NCBI GenBank assembly: GCA_001783805.1
Contig: MFNS01000001.1
Location: 192,649 to 256,648 of the forward strand
Length of the DNA stretch: 64,000 nt
Direction: 5' to 3'
Source of the DNA: Candidatus Levybacteria bacterium RIFCSPHIGHO2_01_FULL_40_16
GTDB taxonomy: Bacteria > Patescibacteriota > Microgenomatia > Levybacterales > UBA12049
A program made the translations under genes and the position numbers. Below, piece by piece: positions 3,404-41,284 of this stretch (positions within the stretch are counted from its first letter, which is position 1; each line of letters starts with the position of its first letter). The notes beneath the pieces are model-generated. The model was not told where the DNA came from, did not search any database, and saw nothing but the letters and a program-made list of their open reading frames with translations.

Positions 3404-5419
3404 TTAAGATAATTTTAAAGATTTGATTTGGTCGCGGAGAAATGCGGCTTTTTCGAAATTCAAAGTCTGGGCGGCAATTTTCATTTCTTTTCGTAACTTT
3501 TTAATCAAATCTTCCCTTTCGTCAGGAAGCAAAACTTCTTTTTTGGCAAGGTCAAGATAAAAATTCAAACTGCCTTTGTAATTTTTACTTTCCGTAATTT
3601 CTTCGTCAATTAATTTTTCTCTAATTTGTTTTTGTATTCCGATTGGTTTTTTGTGATATTTTTTGTTGTATTTCAGCTGGATATTCCTGCGTCTTTCAAC
3701 CTCATTAATTGCATTTTTCATCGAACCTGTGACATTGTCAGCATACATAATTACCTCCGCATCAACATGTCTGGCCGCTCTTCCCATAGTTTGAATAAGC
3801 GATGTTCTACTGCGCAGAAATCCTTCTTTGTCCGCATCCAAAATCGCAACCAAAGAAACTTCGGGTAGATCCAATCCTTCACGCAGCAAATTAATTCCAA
3901 CCAGGACATCGTATTCGCCTTTTCTCAATCTATCCAAAATATCTTGTCTCTCTAGCGTTTGAATGTCGGAGTGCAGATACGCGACTTTAACATTTTGTTC
4001 TTCCAAATAACTGGAAAGCTCTTCCGCCATTCGTTTGGTTAAGGTAGTTACCAAAATTCTTTGTTTTTTGGCAACTCTTTTATTAATTTCATCAATCAGA
4101 TCTATAATTTGTCCTTTGGTTGGTTTGATAATTACTTTCGGATCAACCAAATTGGTTGGGCGAATCAATTGTTCGACAACCGCTCCGTCAGCTGACGGAT
4201 TGTCTTTGGCTAAAGATAACTCGTACTCGTCAGGAGTGGCGCTGACATAAGTAATTTGGTTAACTCTTTGCATAAATTCAGTAAATTTGAGCGGACGGTT
4301 GTCCAATGCGGAGGGAAGACGGAAACCATAATCAATTAAAGTGTTCTTTCTTGATTGATCTCCGTTGTACATTCCTCTTATTTGTGGAATTGTAATATGT
4401 GATTCATCAATAATTGTCAGGAAGTTTTTTGATGCATGCTTAAAATAGTCTAGTAAGGTATAGGGCGGCTGGCCGGGCGCTCTACCGTCAAAATAACGCG
4501 AATAATTTTCAATTCCATTGACGTAGCCTACTTCTTTGATCATTTCCAAATCAAAATTCGTCCGTTGTTCCAGCCTGTGGGCTTCCAAATTTTTACCAAC
4601 GCTTTTTAAAAATTTAACTTGTGTTTCCATGTCTTTTCTGATTATCGGAAACACATTATTGTAAGTATGCGGATCAGTCATATAATGTTTGGCAGGATAA
4701 ATCACCGTACCCTTCAAAATTGCAATTGTGTCGCCGGTTAAAGAATTAAACTCAGAAAGTTTATAGAGCTTATTCTTTTTAAGCTCAATTCTAATTCCTG
4801 TGTCTTTATAAGCCGGAAAAAGATCAATTGATTCGCCTCTAACCCGAAAACCGCCTCTGGCGAAAGCATATTCATTGCGTTCGTATTGCAGGTCGGTCAG
4901 ACGGATCATGATAGATTTTAAATCAGTCTTCATTCCGGGGACTAGCTCCATGACAAATTTTCCGTATTCAACCGGGGAGCCTAAATTGTAAATACAGGAG
5001 ACCGAAGCAACAACAATTACATCTTTTCTAGTTAATAAATTGGTTGTTGCGGAAAGCCGTAATTTATCAATTTCCTCATTAATTTCCGCCTCTTTTTCGA
5101 TGTAGGTGTCGCTTTGCGGGATATAAGCTTCGGGCTGGTAATAATCGTAGTAGGAGACAAAATAGGAAACGGCATTTTGCGGGAAAAAATCCCTGAATTC
5201 CTGATAAAGTTGTGCGGCCAGAGTTTTATTATGCGAAATTACCAGTGTTGGTTTTTGAACTTTTTGAATTACATTAGCCATGGTGAAAGTTTTACCAGAT
5301 CCGGTCACGCCTAGCAGAACCTGATTCCGGACATTGTTTTCAATGTTTTTCACCAGTTTTTCGATTGCCTGCGGCTGATCTCCGGTCGGTTTAAAATCCG
5401 ACTTCAGCTTAAATTTCAT
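3404..5419 (-). CDS. uvrB: excinuclease ABC subunit B
   Basis: GDQPQAI...GVTGSGKT Walker A, YYDYYQPEAYIP, and the DGRAPGQPP motif. Confidence 0.9.
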   Translation of the reverse strand: MKFKLKSDFKPTGDQPQAIEKLVKNIENNVRNQVLLGVTGSGKTFTMANVIQKVQKPTLVISHNKTLAAQLYQEFRDFFPQNAVSYFVSYYDYYQPEAYIPQSDTYIEKEAEINEEIDKLRLSATTNLLTRKDVIVVASVSCIYNLGSPVEYGKFVMELVPGMKTDLKSIMIRLTDLQYERNEYAFARGGFRVRGESIDLFPAYKDTGIRIELKKNKLYKLSEFNSLTGDTIAILKGTVIYPAKHYMTDPHTYNNVFPIIRKDMETQVKFLKSVGKNLEAHRLEQRTNFDLEMIKEVGYVNGIENYSRYFDGRAPGQPPYTLLDYFKHASKNFLTIIDESHITIPQIRGMYNGDQSRKNTLIDYGFRLPSALDNRPLKFTEFMQRVNQITYVSATPDEYELSLAKDNPSADGAVVEQLIRPTNLVDPKVIIKPTKGQIIDLIDEINKRVAKKQRILVTTLTKRMAEELSSYLEEQNVKVAYLHSDIQTLERQDILDRLRKGEYDVLVGINLLREGLDLPEVSLVAILDADKEGFLRSRTSLIQTMGRAARHVDAEVIMYADNVTGSMKNAINEVERRRNIQLKYNKKYHKKPIGIQKQIREKLIDEEITESKNYKGSLNFYLDLAKKEVLLPDEREDLIKKLRKEMKIAAQTLNFEKAAFLRDQIKSLKLS

Positions 5420-5451
5420 AGTGATCTATTTTACCATACGTTTGTATACCT

Positions 5452-5489
5452 TTGACATCTTGACAAAATACTCGAATATTTCGTATAAA
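5452..5489 (+). promoter_or_regulatory. lexA promoter (TTGACA-18-TATAAA) with candidate LexA operator CGAATATTTCG (5473-5483) in the spacer
   Basis: A near-palindrome CGAA-TAT-TTCG lies between -35 and -10 in the divergent uvrB-lexA intergenic region. Confidence 0.4.
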
Positions 5490-5526: not shown

Positions 5527-6156
5527 ATGCCGGGAGTAATTTACAAAAAAGAAAGAGAAGTTTTGGAATACCTTGCCCAATTTCAAAGACAATTTGGCTA
5601 TTCTCCAACGCTTAAGGAGATAGCGGGAGCTACAGGACACAGAAGCAATTCTACGGTTCATTCGTTAATTAAGTCTTTGGTTGATAAGGGCTATATCCAA
5701 AAAGTTGATGGGAATAACAGAGTGCTTAAAATTGTTGATCAGAAAGTTACATTCTCTCTGTTAGGAAGTACCGCTTCAATAGAGCTTCCTCTGATGGGCT
5801 ATATTGCCGCAGGAAAGCCCCTGGAGCCTCACAGCGACCCCAATGCTACATTTCATGTATCGGCATCAATGATATCCGGCAAAAAAACCGCTTATGTTTT
5901 GCAGGTCAAAGGCAATTCCATGATTGAGGATGGGATATTTGACGGAGATTTTGTGGTTATTGAAAAAGCAGAAACGGCGACAAATGGAGATATTGTGGTT
6001 GCTTTAGTTGATAATAATATGGCGACTTTAAAAAGATTTTTTAATGAAAATGGAAAGATTGTTTTGAAACCTGCTAATGCAGAAATGGCACCGATTTACC
6101 CGAATACCCTTTTAATTCAGGGAAAAGCTGTGGGAATTGTCCGCAAATTCTCCTAA
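5527..6156 (+). CDS. lexA: LexA repressor (S24 peptidase)
   Basis: N-terminal wHTH (YSPTLKEIAGATGHRSNSTVHSLIKSL); C-terminal S24 domain (VKGNSMIEDGIFDGDFVVI...LKRF). Confidence 0.85.
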   Translation: MPGVIYKKEREVLEYLAQFQRQFGYSPTLKEIAGATGHRSNSTVHSLIKSLVDKGYIQKVDGNNRVLKIVDQKVTFSLLGSTASIELPLMGYIAAGKPLEPHSDPNATFHVSASMISGKKTAYVLQVKGNSMIEDGIFDGDFVVIEKAETATNGDIVVALVDNNMATLKRFFNENGKIVLKPANAEMAPIYPNTLLIQGKAVGIVRKFS

Positions 6157-22392: not shown

Positions 22393-22947
22393 ATGATTCC
22401 AGTCACGTCTTTAAGGCCGGGGATAACTTATGAGGAACACGGAGATATTTTTGAAGTTTTAACCTATAACAACATGCATCTTCGGAAAACCAGCTCCGTG
22501 GTACAGGTAAAAGTCAGAAGTTTGAGAAAAGGCTCAACTTTAGAAAAAACTTATGGGAGCAACGGACAGGTGGAGCCGGTCACAATCCAAAAAAAAGAAC
22601 TCCAATATCTGTACAAAGACAATGATTCCTGTTATTTTATGGACCCGCAAACTTTTGAACAGATTAGCGTTTTAACCAAGAATTTATACGGCAGCAATTA
22701 TTTAAAAGAAGGGGAGACAGTAATAATTAGCTTTAATAAGGAGGAGGCCTTGAGCATGGCGCTTCCCCCGAAAATGAAATTCCGGGTTACGGATACCAAT
22801 CCCGGCGTCAAAGGCAATTCCGCCACCAATGTTTATAAAGATGCTACTCTGGAAAACGGCTTAACTACCAAAGTTCCTTTGTTTATCGACATCGGAGACG
22901 AAATTATTGTTGACACCCGCGACGGCTCCTACACTGCCCGCGCATAA
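22393..22947 (+). CDS. efp: elongation factor P
   Basis: EF-P length and the KOW-like N-domain; conserved loop region around KTSSVVQVKVRSLRKG. Confidence 0.85.
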   Translation: MIPVTSLRPGITYEEHGDIFEVLTYNNMHLRKTSSVVQVKVRSLRKGSTLEKTYGSNGQVEPVTIQKKELQYLYKDNDSCYFMDPQTFEQISVLTKNLYGSNYLKEGETVIISFNKEEALSMALPPKMKFRVTDTNPGVKGNSATNVYKDATLENGLTTKVPLFIDIGDEIIVDTRDGSYTARA

Positions 22948-22971
22948 CAACTACTTATTAAATTCGAAGCA

Positions 22972-23059
22972 CGAATATCGAAAATCGAAACACTTTTGAA
23001 AATTTGGATTTTGAGAATTATAATTTGTTTCGGATTTCGGATTTTGATATTCGGATTTG
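22972..23059 (+). promoter_or_regulatory. uvrA promoter (TTGAAA 22996-23001, 17-nt spacer, TATAAT 23019-23024) embedded in an imperfect palindrome of CGAA / TTCGG repeats
   Basis: Left arm CGAATATCGAAAATCGAAAC, right arm GTTTCGGATTTCGGATTTTGATATTCGGATTTG; CGAATAT(C/T) is shared with the lexA operator candidate. Confidence 0.45.
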
Positions 23060-23118
23060 CACCCCGTATGGTTGCTACATTATTTTTTTTTCAGTATAAT
23101 ATTAAATCGCTTTAAAGT

Positions 23119-26001
23119 ATGAATGACAAGATAATTATCAAAGGTGCCAGAGAACATAACCTCAAGAATATTGATTTGGAAATTCCCAAAAATAAATTAG
23201 TAGTATTCACCGGTTTATCGGGGTCAGGTAAATCTTCTTTGGCTTTTGACACAATTTATGCCGAAGGACAAAGACGTTATGTAGAAAGTCTGTCTTCTTA
23301 CGCCAGACAGTTTTTAGGTGTGATGAAAAAGCCGGACGTTGACCTGATTGAAGGGCTTTCTCCGGCAATTTCCATTGACCAAAAATCAGCCTCCCATAAT
23401 CCCAGATCAACAGTCGGCACAGTTACGGAAATTTACGACTACTTAAGACTGCTCTTTGCCCGAGTCGGACATCCGCATTGTCCGAAATGCGGCCGGGAAA
23501 TTACCCACCTGACACCTGAACAAATAATTAATGCAGTTTTTGCCTTAATCAATAATGAGGCTTCCAAAAGGATAAAAATATTAATTTTGGCACCGCTTGT
23601 CAAAGACAGAAAAGGCGAATACAAAGAACTTTTTGTTGATCTGAAAAAAAGAGGTTATAGGAAAGTCCGCATTGACAAGCAAATCTTCAGTCTTGAGGAA
23701 AACTTTATTTTAATCAAAACCAATAAACATACTATCGAAGTTATTATCGATGAGGTTGTTTTAACAAAGGACACGGACAGATTGAGGATTGCCGAAGATG
23801 TTGAAAAGGCGCTGAAACTCGGAAACAGTGAGCTAATTGTTTCAATAGTTAAGGATGCGGGATTCAATCTTCCTGCTAAGCCCAAAAAAATGCAGGACGA
23901 ACTCTTTTCGGAGAAATTCGCCTGTCCGGCATGTGGAATTTCGATGTCCGAAATTGAGCCGAGAATTTTCTCTTTTAACACTCCGCATGGCGCCTGTCCG
24001 ACTTGTAACGGATTGGGAACACTGTTAACGGTTGACAGAGACTTGGTCTTCAATAACAATCTTTCAATTAGCGAGGGCGGTATTTTGCCCTATTCAAACC
24101 TTTTTGAAAATGATACTTGGTTTTCCCGCACTTTAATCAAATTTTGCGAAGAAAATGATATTCCGATGAAAGAAAGGCTTCAGGAGGTTTCCGAAAAGAA
24201 AAAAGACCTTTTGCTTTTTGGAACAGGCGAAAAAATCTATGAAGTTGAGGGACAAAACCGTTGGGGGAGAGCGACGGAAATTCATGAACCTTTTCATGGG
24301 ATCCTCGGGGATTTGCGGGAAAAATATTTATCAACAGACTCGATGTTTCTCAAATCCCGGATTGAAAAATTTATGCGCTACGAAGTTTGTCCGGAATGCA
24401 ATGGCGCAAGACTGAAAAAAGAATCTCTATCGATAACTATTGGGAAAAAATCAATTATTGAAGTCTGTAATATGTCTATAGTTGACGCTTTTAAATTTAT
24501 AAAACAGCTCACTGAAATCTTGAGCTCCAGAGAAATTGAGATATCTAAGTTAATTCTTAAAGAAATAAAAGAAAGACTACTGTTTTTAGTTGATGTGGGT
24601 TTGGATTATCTAACTCTGTCGCGGGGAGCACAGACCTTGGCGGGAGGAGAGGCACAAAGGATCAGACTAGCCAGTCAAATAGGCAGCGGGTTGACCGGAG
24701 TTTTATATGTCTTAGACGAACCGTCAATCGGACTGCATCAGAAAGATAACAAAAAATTAATTGAGACGCTTAAGAAGCTCCGGGATCTGGGCAATACGGT
24801 TTTGGTAGTCGAACATGATCAGGAAACAATGAATGAGTCCGATTACATTGTTGATTTCGGTCCGGGCGCCGGCCTTGGCGGGGGACAAATTATTGCCAAA
24901 GGCAACATTTCCGAGATAAAAAAGGATCCCAATTCTATCACGGGTTTATATCTGTCAGGCAAAAGAAAAATAAACGTCGAAACAATGAAGCAATCCAGCA
25001 ATGAAACAATTAAGTATCTGTCAATTTTAGGCGCTAAGGAACATAATTTAAAAAATATTGATGTTAATTTCCCTCTGAATAAATTTATAGTAGTCACCGG
25101 AGTTTCCGGATCGGGAAAATCAACCTTAATCAACGATATTTTATATCATGCTTTAATGCAAATGCAAAATCCTTTCCACCGCGAGAAACCGGGAAAATTT
25201 CAAACCCTTAACGGATATCAAAATATTAAAAGGGTTTATATGATAGATCAATCACCAATCGGTAGGACTCCACGGAGTAATCCTGCCACTTACACAGGCG
25301 CATTTACCTACATCAGGGACATTTTCGCCAGAACAAAAGATGCGAAATTACGGGGTTATGGCCCGGGGAGATTTTCTTTCAATGTCAAAGGCGGACGTTG
25401 TGAGGCTTGCGAAGGGGAAGGGCAAATTAGAATTGAAATGCAATTTTTACCTGATGTTTATGTAACTTGTGAGGTTTGCAACGGTAAGCAATATAATAAA
25501 GAAGCTTTGGAAATTTTTTTGAACGGAAAAAATATTGCAGACATTTTAGCGATGAGCGTTAAAGAAGCTTTGCAGTTCTTTTCTTTTGTCCCGGTACTTT
25601 CCCACAAACTGCAGACTCTCAATGATGTTGGACTTTCTTACATTAAACTGGGCCAACCGGCTCCGACTTTATCGGGAGGAGAAGCGCAGAGAGTGAAATT
25701 ATCCGACGAATTGTCCAAAAAAGGACAAAATTGTTTGTATTTGCTGGATGAGCCAACCACCGGATTGCATTTTGCCGATTTGGAAAAATTATTAATTGTT
25801 TTGCGAAATCTGGTTAATAGGGGTAATACGGTGATTGTTATCGAACATAATCTGGATGTGGTTAAAAATGCGGATTATATTATTGACTTGGGACCTGATG
25901 GAGGAGAAAAAGGCGGGGAAATTGTCGCCTTTGGTACTCCCGAAGAAGTCGCCCGCAGCCCCCGCTCCTACACCGGAGCCTTCCTGAAAAAAATCCTCTA
26001 A
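23119..26001 (+). CDS. uvrA: excinuclease ABC subunit A
   Basis: Two ABC modules (GLSGSGKSSLAF, GVSGSGKSTLIN), zinc-finger Cys clusters, 960 aa. Confidence 0.9.
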   Translation: MNDKIIIKGAREHNLKNIDLEIPKNKLVVFTGLSGSGKSSLAFDTIYAEGQRRYVESLSSYARQFLGVMKKPDVDLIEGLSPAISIDQKSASHNPRSTVGTVTEIYDYLRLLFARVGHPHCPKCGREITHLTPEQIINAVFALINNEASKRIKILILAPLVKDRKGEYKELFVDLKKRGYRKVRIDKQIFSLEENFILIKTNKHTIEVIIDEVVLTKDTDRLRIAEDVEKALKLGNSELIVSIVKDAGFNLPAKPKKMQDELFSEKFACPACGISMSEIEPRIFSFNTPHGACPTCNGLGTLLTVDRDLVFNNNLSISEGGILPYSNLFENDTWFSRTLIKFCEENDIPMKERLQEVSEKKKDLLLFGTGEKIYEVEGQNRWGRATEIHEPFHGILGDLREKYLSTDSMFLKSRIEKFMRYEVCPECNGARLKKESLSITIGKKSIIEVCNMSIVDAFKFIKQLTEILSSREIEISKLILKEIKERLLFLVDVGLDYLTLSRGAQTLAGGEAQRIRLASQIGSGLTGVLYVLDEPSIGLHQKDNKKLIETLKKLRDLGNTVLVVEHDQETMNESDYIVDFGPGAGLGGGQIIAKGNISEIKKDPNSITGLYLSGKRKINVETMKQSSNETIKYLSILGAKEHNLKNIDVNFPLNKFIVVTGVSGSGKSTLINDILYHALMQMQNPFHREKPGKFQTLNGYQNIKRVYMIDQSPIGRTPRSNPATYTGAFTYIRDIFARTKDAKLRGYGPGRFSFNVKGGRCEACEGEGQIRIEMQFLPDVYVTCEVCNGKQYNKEALEIFLNGKNIADILAMSVKEALQFFSFVPVLSHKLQTLNDVGLSYIKLGQPAPTLSGGEAQRVKLSDELSKKGQNCLYLLDEPTTGLHFADLEKLLIVLRNLVNRGNTVIVIEHNLDVVKNADYIIDLGPDGGEKGGEIVAFGTPEEVARSPRSYTGAFLKKIL

Positions 26002-26616: not shown

Positions 26617-28488
26617 ATGAGAAAAGTTCTTGGATTGATCTTTGGTTTTATTTTTTGTTTAATTTTCTTTTTTACTCCTCAATCAGCTTTTGCAGATTCG
26701 AATTTTACCACAGATTACAACGTTACTTACAATGTACTGGAAAATGCGCTAACACACGTGACTTTTGATATCACGCTGACCAATAAAACCAGCCAATATT
26801 ATGCATCTTCCTACGGTGTTCAGGTTGGATTTAAAGATATTGAAAATGTTTTTGCCCGCGACGGCGGAGGAAAAATAACGCCTCAAATCTCAAAAAATAA
26901 TGACGAGAACAATATCGAAGTTACTTTTAATGACCGGGTTGTCGGACTAGGTAAAAACCTCTATTTTTCAATATCTTTTGACACCAAAGATATCGCGCAA
27001 AAATCCGGACAGATTTGGGACATAAATATTCCCGGGTTAGCCGAACAAAAAGCTTACAACTCTTTTAATGTTAAAGTTATCGTTCCTAGTTTCTTAGGAA
27101 GCCCTTCGTATATCAAGCCCGATAGCGGAAAACTTATCAATAATAATTTGATCTTTACGAAAGACGAACTTGGGGAATCGGGAATATCAATATCTTTTGG
27201 CAAAGAACAAATTTATAACTTTAATCTTTTGTATCATTTAAAAAATTCAAATTTATTTCCGATCAAAACAGAAATTGCGCTTCCTCCGTCAACCAATTAC
27301 CAAGATATTCAGATATCGAATATTGAACCAAGACCTCAAAATGTGACACGGGATATTGATGGTAACTGGCTTGCTCAATATATTCTAGCACCCGGCAAAA
27401 AAGTCGATATTAGCGTTGAGGGAGTTGCGAAAATAATGCTTAGTCCAAAAAAAGAAGCATTGTCGGACACCGAACTTAAGGAATATTTAAAATCGGAGCC
27501 CTATTGGGAGACTAACGATAAAGAAATAAAAGATTTGGCAAACCTGCTTAAAACTCCTTATGCTATTTACCGATATGTCGTAAATAATTTAAAATATGAT
27601 TTTGACAGAGTGCAGAATAACAAGCCTAGGGTTGGGGCATCCGAAGTGCTCAAGAATTCAACTTCTGCTGTTTGTCTTGAATTTACAGATCTATTTATTG
27701 CCATTGCCAGAGCCGCAAATATTCCGGCCAGGGAAGTAAACGGTTTTGCCTTTACTTCGAATACAAAAGAAAGACCGCTCTCCTTAGTTAAAGATATTTT
27801 GCATGCCTGGCCGGAATATTATGATTATGAATTGCAAACCTGGGTAATGATTGACCCGACCTGGAGCAATACTACCGGAGGCGTAGATTATTTTTACAAA
27901 CTGGATTTCGATCATTTTGCTTTCGTTATCAAAGGCATTAGCAGTACCTATCCTGTGCCGGCAGGCGGTTACAAAGTTTCCGAAAACGACAATTCCAAGG
28001 ATATCAATGTCGAATTTGGAGAAGAATTTGCACCGAAAATCCAAACTCTAACTTTAGGTTCGGACTTTAAGCCTAGTTATTTTTCGGGAGCAAGAGTGAA
28101 AGGGAATGTTTTAATTAGTAACACAGGATATGTTATGTCTTCTCCGCAAGAAGTTACAATCAATACGGATTTCCTGCTGCCTCTCTCTCAAAAAATATCC
28201 GTAGGTCCAATTCCTCCTTTTGGATATGTAAAAATTCCGGTCAGTTTCCAGAAGCCCTCGCTTTTGACAAACAAGTCAGACGTGATTAAAATAGCAATCA
28301 ATGAAAGCTACATTACCAAAGAAATTAAAATTTCTCCATTCGTTTTAAATATATGGACAATTTTAGGAGGGTTCACAATTGTTAGTATTGCAATCGGAAT
28401 ATCGTTTGTTATCTACGGAATCAGGCATTTACCTTTTTCTAGACAAAAAGGGAAAGATCCTTTACGTGGGCAAAGCGAAAAACCTTAA
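26617..28488 (+). CDS. secreted transglutaminase-like (Cys-His-Asp) domain protein with C-terminal TM anchor
   Basis: Signal peptide MRKVLGLIFGFIF...; core SAVCLEFTDLF...HAWPEYY...DPTW. Confidence 0.55.
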   Translation: MRKVLGLIFGFIFCLIFFFTPQSAFADSNFTTDYNVTYNVLENALTHVTFDITLTNKTSQYYASSYGVQVGFKDIENVFARDGGGKITPQISKNNDENNIEVTFNDRVVGLGKNLYFSISFDTKDIAQKSGQIWDINIPGLAEQKAYNSFNVKVIVPSFLGSPSYIKPDSGKLINNNLIFTKDELGESGISISFGKEQIYNFNLLYHLKNSNLFPIKTEIALPPSTNYQDIQISNIEPRPQNVTRDIDGNWLAQYILAPGKKVDISVEGVAKIMLSPKKEALSDTELKEYLKSEPYWETNDKEIKDLANLLKTPYAIYRYVVNNLKYDFDRVQNNKPRVGASEVLKNSTSAVCLEFTDLFIAIARAANIPAREVNGFAFTSNTKERPLSLVKDILHAWPEYYDYELQTWVMIDPTWSNTTGGVDYFYKLDFDHFAFVIKGISSTYPVPAGGYKVSENDNSKDINVEFGEEFAPKIQTLTLGSDFKPSYFSGARVKGNVLISNTGYVMSSPQEVTINTDFLLPLSQKISVGPIPPFGYVKIPVSFQKPSLLTNKSDVIKIAINESYITKEIKISPFVLNIWTILGGFTIVSIAIGISFVIYGIRHLPFSRQKGKDPLRGQSEKP

Positions 28489-29662
28489 AAAAAGGGTTTC
28501 CTCATATTTTCAAAAATCCTCCGATCTGGACGCAAAAACCAACATTTTGGTATCTCAAATTGACAAAATTAAAACAATTACTGCCGATTCTGAAATTGAA
28601 GCATTTCTTCTGGAAAGTAAGCTTATTAAAGAGTTTAAGCCTAAATACAACGTAAAGCTGACAGACGACAAAGCTTACCCGATGATCAAGATTACAATTA
28701 AAGATAAAATCCCAAAAGTTTTAGTCGTCAGGCGTTCGGATGATAAATCCGTCTATTTCGGCCCCTTTCCCAATGGCGCTCAAGCTTTAAGAACTGTTCT
28801 AAAAACGATCCGAAAAATCTTTCACTACCAATCTGTTCCAAATCATCCTAATAAAATCTGTTTGTATTATCACCTCGGATTATGTCCTTGCCCGCCTGTT
28901 TTTGATTCTCCCGAATTTAGGAAAGAATACAAAAAAGATATCAGGCATATTATTAATTTCCTGAGAGGGAATACTAAAAAAGTTGTCAATGATCTTAAAA
29001 AAGAAAGGGATTTATTAAGTAGCAACGAACAGTTCGAAAAAGCAAATACCCTGCAAAACAAAATAAACGCGATCGAATTAATTACCGGACCGTTTTACAA
29101 AACGAAATTAGACCTAGATGACAATCCAATTTTTACGGTTGGCCTGCGAAAGAAAGAAATAACCGACTTAATTGATATTTTAAACAAAAATAATTACAAA
29201 TTAAAAAAAGCAGAAAGGATTGAATGTTTTGATATCTCCAATATTTCCGGGACATATGCCGCCGGCTCAATGGTGGTTTTCGTCAACGGGCGGAAAGACG
29301 GAAATTGGTACAGAAAATTCAAAATAAGAACCTTGAACACTCCAAATGACTTTGCCATGATGCAAGAAGTTTTACAAAGAAGATTTAGACATAAAGAGTG
29401 GCCATTTCCAGATTTGCTAATTGTTGACGGAGGAAAAGGACAGATTTCAATTGCCTTAAAAGTTTTAAAAAGCATGAATTTAAATATTCCAATTGTTGGT
29501 CTTGCCAAACGGGAGGAAACAATTGTTACTTCTGATTTTAAAGAAATAGTTTTACCAAAAAATTCTGATGCCTTGAAACTGATAATGCGGATCCGTGATG
29601 AAGCACATCGCTTCGCCATCACCTATCACAAATTACTCCGCTCCAAGTCATTGCTTTCTTGA
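28379..29662 (+). CDS. uvrC: excinuclease ABC subunit C, compact form (GIY-YIG plus RNase H-like endonuclease domain, no C-terminal HhH)
   Basis: [29 protein letters not shown]; ...LAKREE...[11 protein letters not shown]. The annotated start overlaps the upstream CDS by about 110 nt. Confidence 0.75.
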   Translation: [427 protein letters not shown]

Positions 29663-35572: not shown

Positions 35573-36874
35573 CTAAATCAACTGCCTTTTTACTTTTTGA
35601 GCTAGTTGAGATTTGGCAATGGGCAAGGAAAAGGCAAATGTGCTCCCAACGCCTACCTCCGATTTATCAATCCACAATTCTCCTCGCATTTTACGGATCA
35701 TCTCTTGGGATATGTGCAGCCCAAGCCCCGTACTTGCCGGTTTGTCTTTAGCTGATTCAAGCTGTTCAAACATCCCAAAAAGCTTGCCTTGGTCTTCTTT
35801 CGTAATGCCAATGCCGGTGTCCGTAATATAAACGCTTACTTTATCTTGTTCACTTTTGGTTGAAATAGTAATGCTGCCTTGATCCGTAAATTTAAGTGAA
35901 TTGCCAATGAGATTATTTAAAACTTCTTTTACCTTCTCCGAATCACCTTGAACGATAATAGGCTCAAGTTTTGCGATTTCAAGCCGCAGCCCTTTTTGTC
36001 CGGATAGCGGCTGCAATAGATGGACTGCCTGATTAACAACATCTGCAATAGAAAATTCTGATAGATTATAGCTCATCTTTCCTGCCTGAATCCGCGAAAG
36101 GCTTAACAGATCGTTTACCAGATTAATCAACCGCTGACTGGAAGTATTTACATCCTGAAGGGGTTGTTTCAAATTTGCGTTTACCTCCCCGTATTCTCCG
36201 CTAAGAATCATTGAAACCAAACCATCAATAGCGGTAAGTGGTGTTCTAAGTTCGTGTGAAGCAATCGACAAAAACTCATCCTTAAGCTTATCCAAGCTCT
36301 CCAATTTTTTATTGGCCTTTTGTAGATTGGCTTTTTCTTTGATTAAATCTTGCTCACTTCTCTTACGCTCCGAAAGAGCCAAACTCAAGTTGTGCGAATT
36401 AACCTCAAGCTCTGCCCAAGCGGCTAATCCCAAAAGAATTTCTTGATTAGCTTTTGCAAATTCTCTTGGTTTTGTATCTTTAATGCAGAAAACGCCCACC
36501 CGTTGTCCGTCGGCATTTGAAATCGGTACGCCTGCATAAAAACGGATGTATGGCTTGCCAACTACCATCGGGTTATCGGAAAACCTCACATCTTTTTTTG
36601 TATCCGGTATTACCAACATTTCCGGAGCCAAAAGTGCGTGCCCGCAAAATGAAATAGCGCGACTGCCTTCTTTACTCGAAAGACCCTGACAGGATTTAAA
36701 CCATTCTCTTTTCTCGTCGACCAGAGTTAAGGTTGAAATGGGGACATGAAAAATTTGGGTTGCGGTACGGGTGATTATGTCAAACCGTTCCTCAGGATGA
36801 GTATCAAGAAGCCCTAATTTATGCAAAGACAGAAGGCGTTCTTGTTCATTGTCGGGAATTGGCGCATGTTTCAT
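35573..36874 (-). CDS. GAF-domain sensor histidine kinase
   Basis: H-box LSIASHELRTPLTAI; HATPase N/G boxes (LIGNSLKFT, DTGIGI, GLGL). Confidence 0.8.
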   Translation of the reverse strand: MKHAPIPDNEQERLLSLHKLGLLDTHPEERFDIITRTATQIFHVPISTLTLVDEKREWFKSCQGLSSKEGSRAISFCGHALLAPEMLVIPDTKKDVRFSDNPMVVGKPYIRFYAGVPISNADGQRVGVFCIKDTKPREFAKANQEILLGLAAWAELEVNSHNLSLALSERKRSEQDLIKEKANLQKANKKLESLDKLKDEFLSIASHELRTPLTAIDGLVSMILSGEYGEVNANLKQPLQDVNTSSQRLINLVNDLLSLSRIQAGKMSYNLSEFSIADVVNQAVHLLQPLSGQKGLRLEIAKLEPIIVQGDSEKVKEVLNNLIGNSLKFTDQGSITISTKSEQDKVSVYITDTGIGITKEDQGKLFGMFEQLESAKDKPASTGLGLHISQEMIRKMRGELWIDKSEVGVGSTFAFSLPIAKSQLAQKVKRQLI

Positions 36875-37018
36875 AATTAAAACTCAGTTGAAGCTGGATA
36901 ACTGCCTTGCTTGGAATTTTTATGATCCATATTGTTAATAATATACGAATCATTATCTCTTTGGCAATATTCAATGCAATCAGTCATTCTTCAGGATATC
37001 TGGTATAATTTAATTTAC

Positions 37019-37090
37019 GCCCTTGTAGCTTAACGGATAAAGCACTGGTCTTCGGAACCAGTAATGGGGGTTCGATTCCCTCCAGGGGCA
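37019..37090 (+). tRNA. tRNA-Arg (anticodon TCG); TATAAT -10 at 37003-37008
   Basis: GCCCTTG acceptor, loop CTTCGGA, T-loop TTCGATT. Confidence 0.8.
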
Positions 37091-37106
37091 CACCTCGCTT
37101 TGCTCG

Positions 37107-39851: not shown

Positions 39852-41129
39852 CTAAATAGATTCAGCAGCCAATTTGGTGCGTTCGTATTTGTCTGCCATG
39901 TAGCCGTTGGGAACCGTGGTAAGTTTGTCTGAATATAATAAAAATCCATTGCGGATGGTATGATCGCCAAAACGCTCATTAATAAAATCTACTGTTTGTT
40001 GCAAAGAATTCTGCTTTGCAGAAGAATCAAATAAAGATAGGGGAGTATTGCTTGAGTCCTCTAAACCTGATGCCGTAATTCCAATTTGCCTGACATATTT
40101 AAAATTATTGACATTAACTAAATTGGTTAATAAATCAAACATTTCTTTACCTGTATCAAAATATTTCGTATAAGTTTTTCTTTGATGTAAATTTATGTTT
40201 CCGCCAAAATAATATCCGACAGTCCTGGCTTTTTTATTTAAGCGCCTTAATTTGATGCAAACTTCTTCGCACAATTCATAAATGTTTTGCAGAACAACTT
40301 TTTTATTATATTCGTTTTGGGGCAAACAATAATTCCGTCCCACCGATTTCACTTCCGGAGTCTTAGTGTAGGAACTTAGAACATCTGTGCTTAAGCCTAA
40401 GCCTACTTGATGTAAAAACTCTGCCTCTGCAGAGCCAAATTCCTGAATTAATAATGATAAATTCGCATCCCGTAATTGCAATAGATTGTAAATGCCGATC
40501 TTATTAAGTCTTAATTTTATTCTTTCTCCGATTCCGCAGACATCGGTTAATTTTGCTTTTGCATAAACTGCTCCTAAATTATCCTTGGTAATTTCGAACA
40601 CCCCGTCCGGTTTGTTAATGCTCGATGCCAATTTTGCCAAAAGTTTATTGTGCGAAATGCCAACCGAAACCGTAATATGTTCGCCGATTTTTTCTCTGAT
40701 TTCTTTTTTAAGAAGTTTTATCGTGCTATAAACTCCGCCGAATAAATGATTCGTCAAAGTAATATCCATAAAAACTTCGTCAATTGAGAAAAGTTCGACT
40801 TCCGGAGAAAAGCTTTGACAAATCTTCAAAAACTTCTTTGACACTTCCAGATATTTAACAAAATTAGCCGGAGCAAGATTCAGTGTGGGACAAATTTTCA
40901 GAGCTTCATAAGTTCGGGCTCCTGTTTTAATTCCTAATCTTTTCGCTTCGCGGCTGGAGGCAATAATACAAGTCCTGCCGTTGGTTGCGGTCACTCCGAG
41001 AGGCTTATTGCGCAAAAGGGGATTAAACTGCTGTTCGCAGCTGGCAAAAAAACTGTCAAAATCAATATGTAAAACCCGCCTGCCATCGGCTTTTGCCGAA
41101 GGTAAATGCGGGCAGGTTATTTTTTGCAT
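39852..41129 (-). CDS. dinB: DNA polymerase IV (Y-family)
   Basis: VLHIDFDSFFASCEQ catalytic motif; full UmuC/DinB architecture. Confidence 0.85.
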   Translation of the reverse strand: MQKITCPHLPSAKADGRRVLHIDFDSFFASCEQQFNPLLRNKPLGVTATNGRTCIIASSREAKRLGIKTGARTYEALKICPTLNLAPANFVKYLEVSKKFLKICQSFSPEVELFSIDEVFMDITLTNHLFGGVYSTIKLLKKEIREKIGEHITVSVGISHNKLLAKLASSINKPDGVFEITKDNLGAVYAKAKLTDVCGIGERIKLRLNKIGIYNLLQLRDANLSLLIQEFGSAEAEFLHQVGLGLSTDVLSSYTKTPEVKSVGRNYCLPQNEYNKKVVLQNIYELCEEVCIKLRRLNKKARTVGYYFGGNINLHQRKTYTKYFDTGKEMFDLLTNLVNVNNFKYVRQIGITASGLEDSSNTPLSLFDSSAKQNSLQQTVDFINERFGDHTIRNGFLLYSDKLTTVPNGYMADKYERTKLAAESI

Positions 41130-41284
41130 ATCTTAATCGTATGGGAAAAATACCCGAAAAACAATAGAACAAAACTAGAACAAAAATAGACTTTTGATAT
41201 CAACTTTTATGGTTAGAAGCCATAGGCAGAGGTAGGCCTTAAGAATTAAAAGCGTGAAGATAAATTACAATAAATAAATTAAAA

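Follow-up and report, generated by a model that had tools for sequence, protein, structure and literature searches.

A conserved element shared by the lexA and dinB promoters as a candidate LexA operator core in Levyibacteriota

In the SOS paradigm of E. coli, LexA regulates its own gene at a CTGT-N8-ACAG operator that overlaps the lexA promoter. The presence of a lexA gene among DNA repair genes in the 64,000-nucleotide stretch of Candidatus Levybacteria DNA analyzed here (hereafter, the window; 35-40% G+C), which derives from a Levyibacteriota genome and thus from the Patescibacteria or candidate phyla radiation, raises the question of which sequence serves as LexA operator in this lineage and which of the neighboring repair genes carry it. 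As listed in an earlier note on this DNA, and as borne out by NCBIfam and Pfam matches, lexA and uvrB are divergently oriented, with uvrA, uvrC and dinB also being found in the window. Specifically, lexA (5527-6156, + strand; 209 residues) was recognized by NCBIfam model TIGR00498 (166 bits, cut-off 111), while uvrB (3404-5419, - strand) and uvrA (23119-26001, + strand), the latter next to efp (22393-22947, + strand; NCBIfam and Pfam), were likewise assigned by NCBIfam. A short form of uvrC (28379-29662, + strand) was assigned by Pfam, as was dinB (39852-41129, - strand), encoding a 425-residue Y-family DNA polymerase IV with IMS and IMS_C domains. The 427-residue uvrC product contains only GIY-YIG and UvrC RNase H-like domains at E <= 1e-5, and in the ORFs as listed, the first 110 nt or so of this gene overlap the 3' end of the transglutaminase-like gene before it. 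No recA was found by tblastn in the window or in any of the loci fetched for comparison. The window also holds 17 tRNA genes per 64 kb, often single and dispersed among protein-encoding genes.

The LexA protein encoded in the window looks functional, as predicted from its full-length alignment with the solved LexA structures 3K2Z and 3JSO and from retention of the Ala95-Gly96 cleavage site, Ser131 and Lys169. The features expected of the repressor acting at an SOS operator, namely, a winged helix-turn-helix (HTH) domain joined to an S24 autopeptidase with an Ala-Gly site and a Ser/Lys dyad, are hence all present. The recognition helix of the winged HTH (residues 38-51) reads HRSNSTVHSLIKSL. 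At the positions of helix 3 that contact bases in E. coli LexA, the window protein differs at four of five. The motif S-x-S-T-V-H is common to the recognition helices of the window protein and B. subtilis LexA.

Examination of the region upstream of lexA revealed a promoter (5460-5489, + strand) comprising TTGACA (5460-5465), an 18-nt spacer and TATAAA (5484-5489), with an additional TTGACA (5452-5457) found before the -35 hexamer. The spacer contains the palindrome CGAATATTTCG (5473-5483, + strand; left arm CGAA at 5473-5476), such that promoter and palindrome are both present as the earlier note had described them. The region was compared across 80 lexA loci (49-97% LexA identity), which with few exceptions bear the label Candidatus Levyibacteriota or Patescibacteria, with motifs being counted in 66 non-redundant Levyibacteriota promoters. 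The TTGACA-17/18-TATAAA or TATATT architecture is kept in most of the 80 loci. The invariant part of the 66 promoters proved to be TTTCG followed by TATA (5479-5487 in the window), that is, the right arm of the palindrome together with the start of the -10 hexamer. In the alignment, TTTCG before the -10 is as informative as the promoter hexamers, the remainder of the spacer being clade-dependent. Apart from the promoters, the lexA 5' leaders of five loci (L047, L058, L060, L062 and L080) are made up of short sequences repeated in tandem, e.g., CTAACTTCTAGCT or ACTAGCCACTAGCGACTAG.

The left arm of the palindrome behaves differently. CGAA-N3-TTCG was found in 19 of the 66 lexA promoters (0.4% expected), all belonging to the subclade of the window, within which the spacing between CGAA and TTCG ranges from N2 to N5. 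In other lexA promoters, GTTCTAG or CTTCGTA, both direct-repeat partners, appear to the left of the core instead of CGAA, and loci sharing the recognition helix HRSNSTVH present either CGAA or GTTCTAG at this side. In the window as a whole, CGAA-N3-TTCG matches twice against 1.55 matches expected, which is not above chance. The earlier note had proposed this palindrome as the LexA box and had called for a search for it at other damage genes. Such a search gave the outcome that the note had named as refuting the proposal, given that the motif is absent from all 56 dinB promoters counted, including that of the window, and visual inspection of the uvrA upstream regions of the window and of eight relatives did not reveal it. 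The palindrome CGAATATTTCG thus amounts to the core joined to a partner peculiar to this lineage and not to a regulon-wide box. On the other hand, the broader claim that an SOS-specific conserved element occupies the classical autoregulation position of lexA, here the spacer and -10 region, was upheld.

The core, TTTCGTATA (5479-5487, + strand), proposed here as the main LexA half-site, overlaps the -10 hexamer at 5484-5489, and this overlap is conserved in position among the relatives. The heptamer TTCGTAT was found in 49 of 66 lexA promoters and in 35 of 56 dinB promoters, as compared to an expected 2-3%, and in only seven of 266 other upstream regions of the same loci, which served as controls; as orthologous promoters are not independent of one another, fewer independent events underlie these counts than the numbers suggest. 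Among the 7-mers of the non-redundant dinB set, TTCGTAT ranks first (35/57), and in the non-redundant lexA set is second (50/76) to TCGTATA (57/76), with which it overlaps. The 762 kb of fetched loci contain 246 copies of TTCGTAT, of which 105 fall in the 260-nt upstream regions of lexA and dinB. When the window is taken by itself, TTCGTATA shows no enrichment, its five copies comparing with about four expected from base composition. The combination looked for in an SOS operator, namely, occurrence at another damage gene together with rarity elsewhere, is thus displayed by TTCGTAT and not by CGAA-N3-TTCG. In conservation, in specificity and in position, the core stands out in both promoter sets.

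The dinB promoter of the window (- strand; -35 TTGTTT at 41164-41159, -10 TACGAT at 41141-41136, ATG at 41129) is leaderless, as are those of its relatives, which present TTGnnn, 17 nt, TAnnnT and then 6-7 nt to the start codon. Among the 80 metagenomic dinB loci fetched, 56 promoters of which entered the motif counts, the -35 hexamer is directly followed by TTTCGTATA in most relatives and by TTTCGGGTA (41159-41151, - strand) in the window. The core, accordingly, assumes a different register in the two promoters, overlapping the -10 in lexA yet lying in the spacer next to the -35 in dinB, and so is not itself a promoter hexamer. In dinB, the core forms part of an array (41145-41181, - strand) of four (G/T)TTC units spaced at exactly 11 bp, namely, GTTC (41181-41178), GTTC (41170-41167), TTTC (41159-41156) and TTTC (41148-41145), arranged as GTTC-N7-GTTC-N7-TTTC-N7-TTTC. 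Tandem Repeats Finder likewise reported a period of 11 at 41163-41190, and the only GTTC-N7-GTTC match in the window is the one in this promoter. Among the relatives, KTTC-N7-KTTC was detected in 41 of 56 dinB and 15 of 66 lexA promoters, as opposed to one of 266 control regions, and TTC-N8-TTCG in 24 of 56 and 26 of 66, respectively. As the dinB core lies within an array phased every 11 bp, the dinB site is read as a putative direct-repeat operator. The dinB product itself carries an N-terminal insertion, ITCPHLPSAKADGRR (41076-41120, - strand; residues about 4-18), before the conserved VLHIDFD; this insertion is also found in L095, L107 and L111 and is absent from most relatives, which start with MQKIILHI.

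In lexA, the partner of the core varies among subclades. The spacer of the subclade to which the window belongs reads ATACTCGAAT, and that of another subclade ATACACGAAAAG, with perfect TATACGA-N4-TCGTATA palindromes in L027 and L035. Other subclades present GTTCTAG or GTTCTAC to the left of the core, one presents a clean direct repeat, TTCGTATAT-N2-TTCGTATAT, and outgroup Microgenomates lexA promoters present TTCGGGT/TTTGGTA direct repeats at the same position. In the window, the unit found 11 bp upstream of the lexA core is ATAC (5468-5471) and not KTTC, such that the direct-repeat reading is weak at this promoter. An inverted CGAA/TTCG arm, a 9-bp tandem TCGAATA/TCGTATA and a degenerate 11-bp direct repeat fit the partner in the window equally well.

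The core was also considered using motif models trained only on the lexA and dinB promoters of relatives, with the window being left out. When the whole window (about 128,000 positions) was scored, a 14-column model ranked the window's lexA site at the top (17.3 bits) and a 20-column model ranked dinB first and lexA second. A model trained on dinB alone was replaced, its score having been dominated by T-rich flanks, with the window's lexA site ranking only tenth. The second-best match of the 14-column model, ATTCGTATATT (36937-36950; ATTCGTATATTATT, - strand), overlaps a -10-like TATATT upstream of a gene encoding a GAF-HisKA histidine kinase (35573-36874). This site was tried as a third member of the regulon and set aside; it is probably due to chance, as it has no counterpart in the two orthologous contexts fetched. 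The histidine kinase matches, at 100% identity, a protein from Candidatus Levybacteria bacterium RIFCSPLOWO2_01_FULL_39. The site and the kinase start are separated by a remnant ORF of 17 codons, and a tRNA-Arg (tcg) gene (37019-37091) adjoins the kinase upstream region.

A second block, TTTG(T/A)(C/T)-N3-5-TTG, ending in the -35 hexamer, was observed upstream of the core in both genes (5441-5465, + strand, and 41184-41159, - strand, in the window; lexA and dinB loci L001-L160), as exemplified by TTTGTCCTATTGACA for lexA and TTTGTCCTCTTGTAA for dinB. This block was counted in 30 of 66 lexA and 45 of 56 dinB promoters, as compared to four of 266 other upstream regions, and in many lexA promoters generates a TTTGTC-N5-GACAAA palindrome. 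The block might represent a further operator, the true operator itself or a piece of a longer phased array. Reading the conserved elements as an extracytoplasmic function (ECF)-sigma promoter, with GTC as -35 and CGTA as -10, was rejected, as the two blocks are separated by anything from 10 to 24 nt, depending on the promoter.

The region upstream of uvrA had been linked to the lexA site by the earlier note, which described a promoter bracketed by a sequence and its partial inverse, with CGAATAT(C/T) as a shared element. Both the TTGAAA-17-TATAAT promoter (22996-23024) and an inverted repeat around it, with arms at 22972-22990 and 23035-23053 (19 nt, 84% complementary, 44 nt apart), do exist. 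They lie, however, in a window-specific segment of 114 bp (22948-23061), located between the efp stop codon and a second uvrA promoter, TTGCTA-17-TATAAT (23072-23100, + strand), which contains no SOS motif. In a comparison of eight uvrA loci (77-90% UvrA identity), this downstream promoter was found to be almost identical in L163 and L164, with TTGAAT-17-TATAAT occupying the same place in L161, L165 and L166, whereas the 114-bp segment, including palindrome and TTGAAA promoter, has no counterpart in any of the eight relatives. The best motif-model scores in the segment are 8.5 and 6.6 bits, as compared to 17.3 bits for lexA. CGAATAT, moreover, occurs 13 times in the window and so does not tie uvrA to lexA, and CGAA-N3-TTCG is absent from the uvrA region of the window. 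The bracketing palindrome is thus a window-specific insertion upstream of the conserved promoter, one that on present evidence stands outside the LexA operator system.

As to the nature of this insertion, it is reasonably likely to represent a lineage-specific hairpin of expanded 7-bp repeats in a hypervariable efp-uvrA spacer that, if active, would act as an efp transcript-end or insulator hairpin and not as an operator. Both arms are composed of 7-bp tandem repeats, the palindrome lies upstream of the conserved promoter, the corresponding position, immediately downstream of efp, is taken in L161 and L168 by another, clean hairpin, ATCCTGAA-TTTA-TTTCAGGAT, and in L163 hardly any sequence separates efp from the uvrA promoter. 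Against such a role, no intrinsic terminator was called in 22900-23200, where the long, AT-rich stem encloses a loop of about 44 nt and is not followed by a T-run, and the predicted RNA fold barely exceeds shuffled sequences in stability (z = -1.8; eight of 200 shuffles at least as stable), for which reason a stable RNA structure was rejected. A repeated mobile element was likewise rejected, the segment being single copy in the window. Elsewhere, short GC-containing palindromes, ATCCTGAA...TTCAGGAT or CCTTCGACAAGCTCAGGAT, are found repeatedly in leaders and intergenic regions of various Levyibacteriota genomes, at sites unrelated to one another (L161:1389-1440, L168:1407-1450, the lexA leaders of L003 and L010, and the dinB leaders of L081, L118, L134 and L138). 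In L003 and L010, the insert moves the lexA promoter to 80-105 nt from the gene. These palindromes may constitute a family of REP- or MITE-like elements.

At uvrB, the promoter presents an extended -10, TGGTAAAAT (TGnTAAAAT; 5428-5436, - strand), 8 nt before the start codon, such that the transcript would be leaderless or nearly so. TGnTAAAAT recurs on the opposite strand in the intergenic regions of relatives, and the conserved TTCGTAT core was not found at the uvrB promoter. A CGTATG before this -10 was considered as a core and rejected, since it belongs to the extended -10 (TGn) and its CG is lost in more distant relatives. No separate intergenic region precedes uvrC. For uvrA and uvrB, no evidence of SOS control was seen. 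A -10 hexamer only 6-8 nt before the start codon was noted at dinB (41129-41141, - strand), at uvrB (5419-5436, - strand) and at lexA of many relatives (e.g., L007, L008 and L019), implying leaderless mRNAs without a Shine-Dalgarno sequence.

Two other accounts of the lexA and dinB sites deserve consideration. According to the first of these, CGAA-N3-TTCG is the LexA box, with CGAATAT[C/T] copies bracketing the uvrA promoter and uvrA being SOS-regulated as well. The palindrome at 5473-5483 is real, its enrichment among lexA promoters is well above expectation and extends to 28 of 66 when the looser CGA-N4-6-TCG is allowed, and relatives offer better palindromes, such as TATACGA-N4-TCGTATA in the two loci mentioned above and TCGAA-ATA-TTCGA in L022. 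In addition, the TTCGGAT heptads of the uvrA arms share TTCG with the core and correspond to the variant form that the core takes in two dinB promoters, those of L081 and L088. Still, these heptads arise from tandem expansion and are not conserved, the segment that holds them is missing in relatives with a near-identical downstream promoter, and neither its model scores nor the 13 copies of CGAATAT single it out. At lexA, 47 of the 66 promoters lack the palindrome yet contain TTTCGTATA, the spacing of the arms drifts within one subclade, and the same HRSNSTVH helix is found with CGAA and with GTTCTAG. Together with the lack of the motif at all 56 dinB promoters and, by eye, at uvrA, this makes the account an unlikely one.

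DNA curvature classically arises from T-tracts phased at 10-11 bp, and TTTCGTATA with its phased T-rich repeats might, as such, reflect promoter architecture (an extended -10, curvature or an UP-like element) or be the site of some other regulator shared by the two genes. In keeping with this, the core overlaps the lexA -10, uvrA promoters likewise have a G before TATAAT, TTTCGTATAAT is also found as the -10 region of the rplS promoter in L021, ATTCGTATATT is the -10 region upstream of the window's histidine kinase gene, the T-rich repeats are phased as curvature-causing T-tracts would be, and the second block, TTTGTC.T.TTG, is also common to lexA and dinB. The core is, however, rare in other upstream regions (seven of 266), CG directly precedes the -10 at only five of 128 other promoter-like sites, the dinB core lies in the spacer by the -35 and not at the -10, and the histidine kinase site is not kept in its two orthologous contexts. 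PMC8565304, moreover, names lexA and dinB as the most widely conserved core SOS genes. We accordingly regard promoter architecture or a non-LexA regulator as quite improbable.

The explanation that we consider probable from the sequences compared is that LexA autoregulates through the operator core TTTCGTATA, with dinB sharing this core within a direct-repeat array and the palindrome not being regulon-wide. The lexA promoter of the window thus probably carries a site for LexA self-repression. LexA, rather than another factor, is inferred as the protein binding the core from the pairing of lexA and dinB, and the arrangement of half-sites is likewise a proposal. LexA would bind the core (5479-5487) in its own promoter, a near-consensus sigma-70 promoter in which the core runs from the end of the spacer into the beginning of the -10 hexamer, such that RNA polymerase would be blocked while LexA is bound. 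Repression would be lifted when LexA, stimulated by RecA, cleaves itself at Ala95-Gly96. At dinB, LexA would be directed to the core in the -35/-10 spacer of the leaderless promoter, as part of the (G/T)TTC array phased every 11 bp. At lexA, the partner would vary with subclade. In some, a direct repeat located 11 bp upstream (GTTCTAG or CTTCGTATAT) would serve as partner, and in the subclade of the window, an inverted CGA(A) arm at a distance of 3-5 bp.

When compared to known systems, the window resembles the E. coli SOS response in having a winged-HTH, S24 peptidase LexA with Ala-Gly, Ser and Lys in place, and in having a conserved element over the -10 of a strong lexA promoter that is also found at dinB. 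The core is, nonetheless, unrelated to CTGT-N8-ACAG, for which no match exists in the 64 kb window, and the regulon looks very small, comprising lexA and dinB, with the uvrA and uvrB promoters lacking the element. In B. subtilis, LexA (DinR) binds the Cheo box, CGAAC-N4-GTTCG. The half-site core (G/T)TTCG resembles GTTCG, yet the arms of CGAA-N3-TTCG are 3 bp closer than those of the Cheo box (CGAA-N6-TTCG), and the dinB arrangement of the window is direct where the Cheo box is inverted. GAAC-N4-GTTC is absent from the lexA, dinB and uvrA upstream regions of the window and was not found near repair genes, its single match in the window (19533) being inside coding sequence. The earlier note was therefore right in considering the LexA box of this lineage to be unlike those of E. 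coli and Bacillus.

Direct-repeat LexA boxes are known from Alphaproteobacteria (GTTC-N7-GTTC) and Balneolaeota (TTACACATATTTTWTACATA). As in the former, the units described here are head-to-tail with an 11-bp period, and the window's dinB promoter literally contains GTTC-N7-GTTC; as in the latter, one lexA subclade among the relatives presents TTCGTATAT-N2-TTCGTATAT, with the same 9+2 layout. The differences are that the best-conserved unit is TTTCG(T/G)(A/G)TA and not GTTC alone, and that the lexA promoter of the window has only a degenerate upstream unit, ATAC. A LexA motif for Patescibacteria has reportedly been described by Sanchez-Osuna, Barbe and Erill in 2017 (Environ Microbiol 19:3465). 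The Patescibacteria SOS study is cited in PMC7739468 among cases of LexA evolving direct-repeat recognition, and the dinB array of the window fits a motif of this type. PMC8565304 cites that study as one of its sources on 17 distinct LexA motifs. The site described here is, as such, probably a commonplace operator for autoregulation, of a kind specific to the lineage and already sketched in the literature for the superphylum.

Only the apparent coexistence of inverted-like and direct partner arrangements is potentially unusual. It is conceivable, although doubtful, that one strong half-site, TTTCGTATA, has been kept within a single phylum while its partner switched between direct (GTTCTAG or TTCGTATAT, 11 bp upstream) and inverted (TATACGA-N4-TCGTATA or CGAA-N3-TTCG) forms with the recognition helix almost unchanged, both arrangements coexisting in the genome of the window, i.e., inverted-like at lexA and direct at dinB. 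If true, such partner switching would offer a snapshot of LexA motifs moving between palindromic and direct-repeat forms.

For Levyibacteriota, these observations provide a working definition of the LexA box as TTTCG(T/G)(A/G)TA with (G/T)TTC partners phased at 11 bp, one that is usable for regulon reconstruction in uncultivated, reduced genomes. On the evidence in the window, the detectable regulon comprises lexA and dinB, with uvrA, uvrB and uvrC lacking such a site. This suggests a minimal SOS regulon directed at translesion synthesis, with the nucleotide excision repair genes lying outside it, and fits the view that error-prone polymerases form the conserved core of the SOS response. Should both partner arrangements prove functional, this clade would represent a natural experiment on the evolution of LexA binding motifs.
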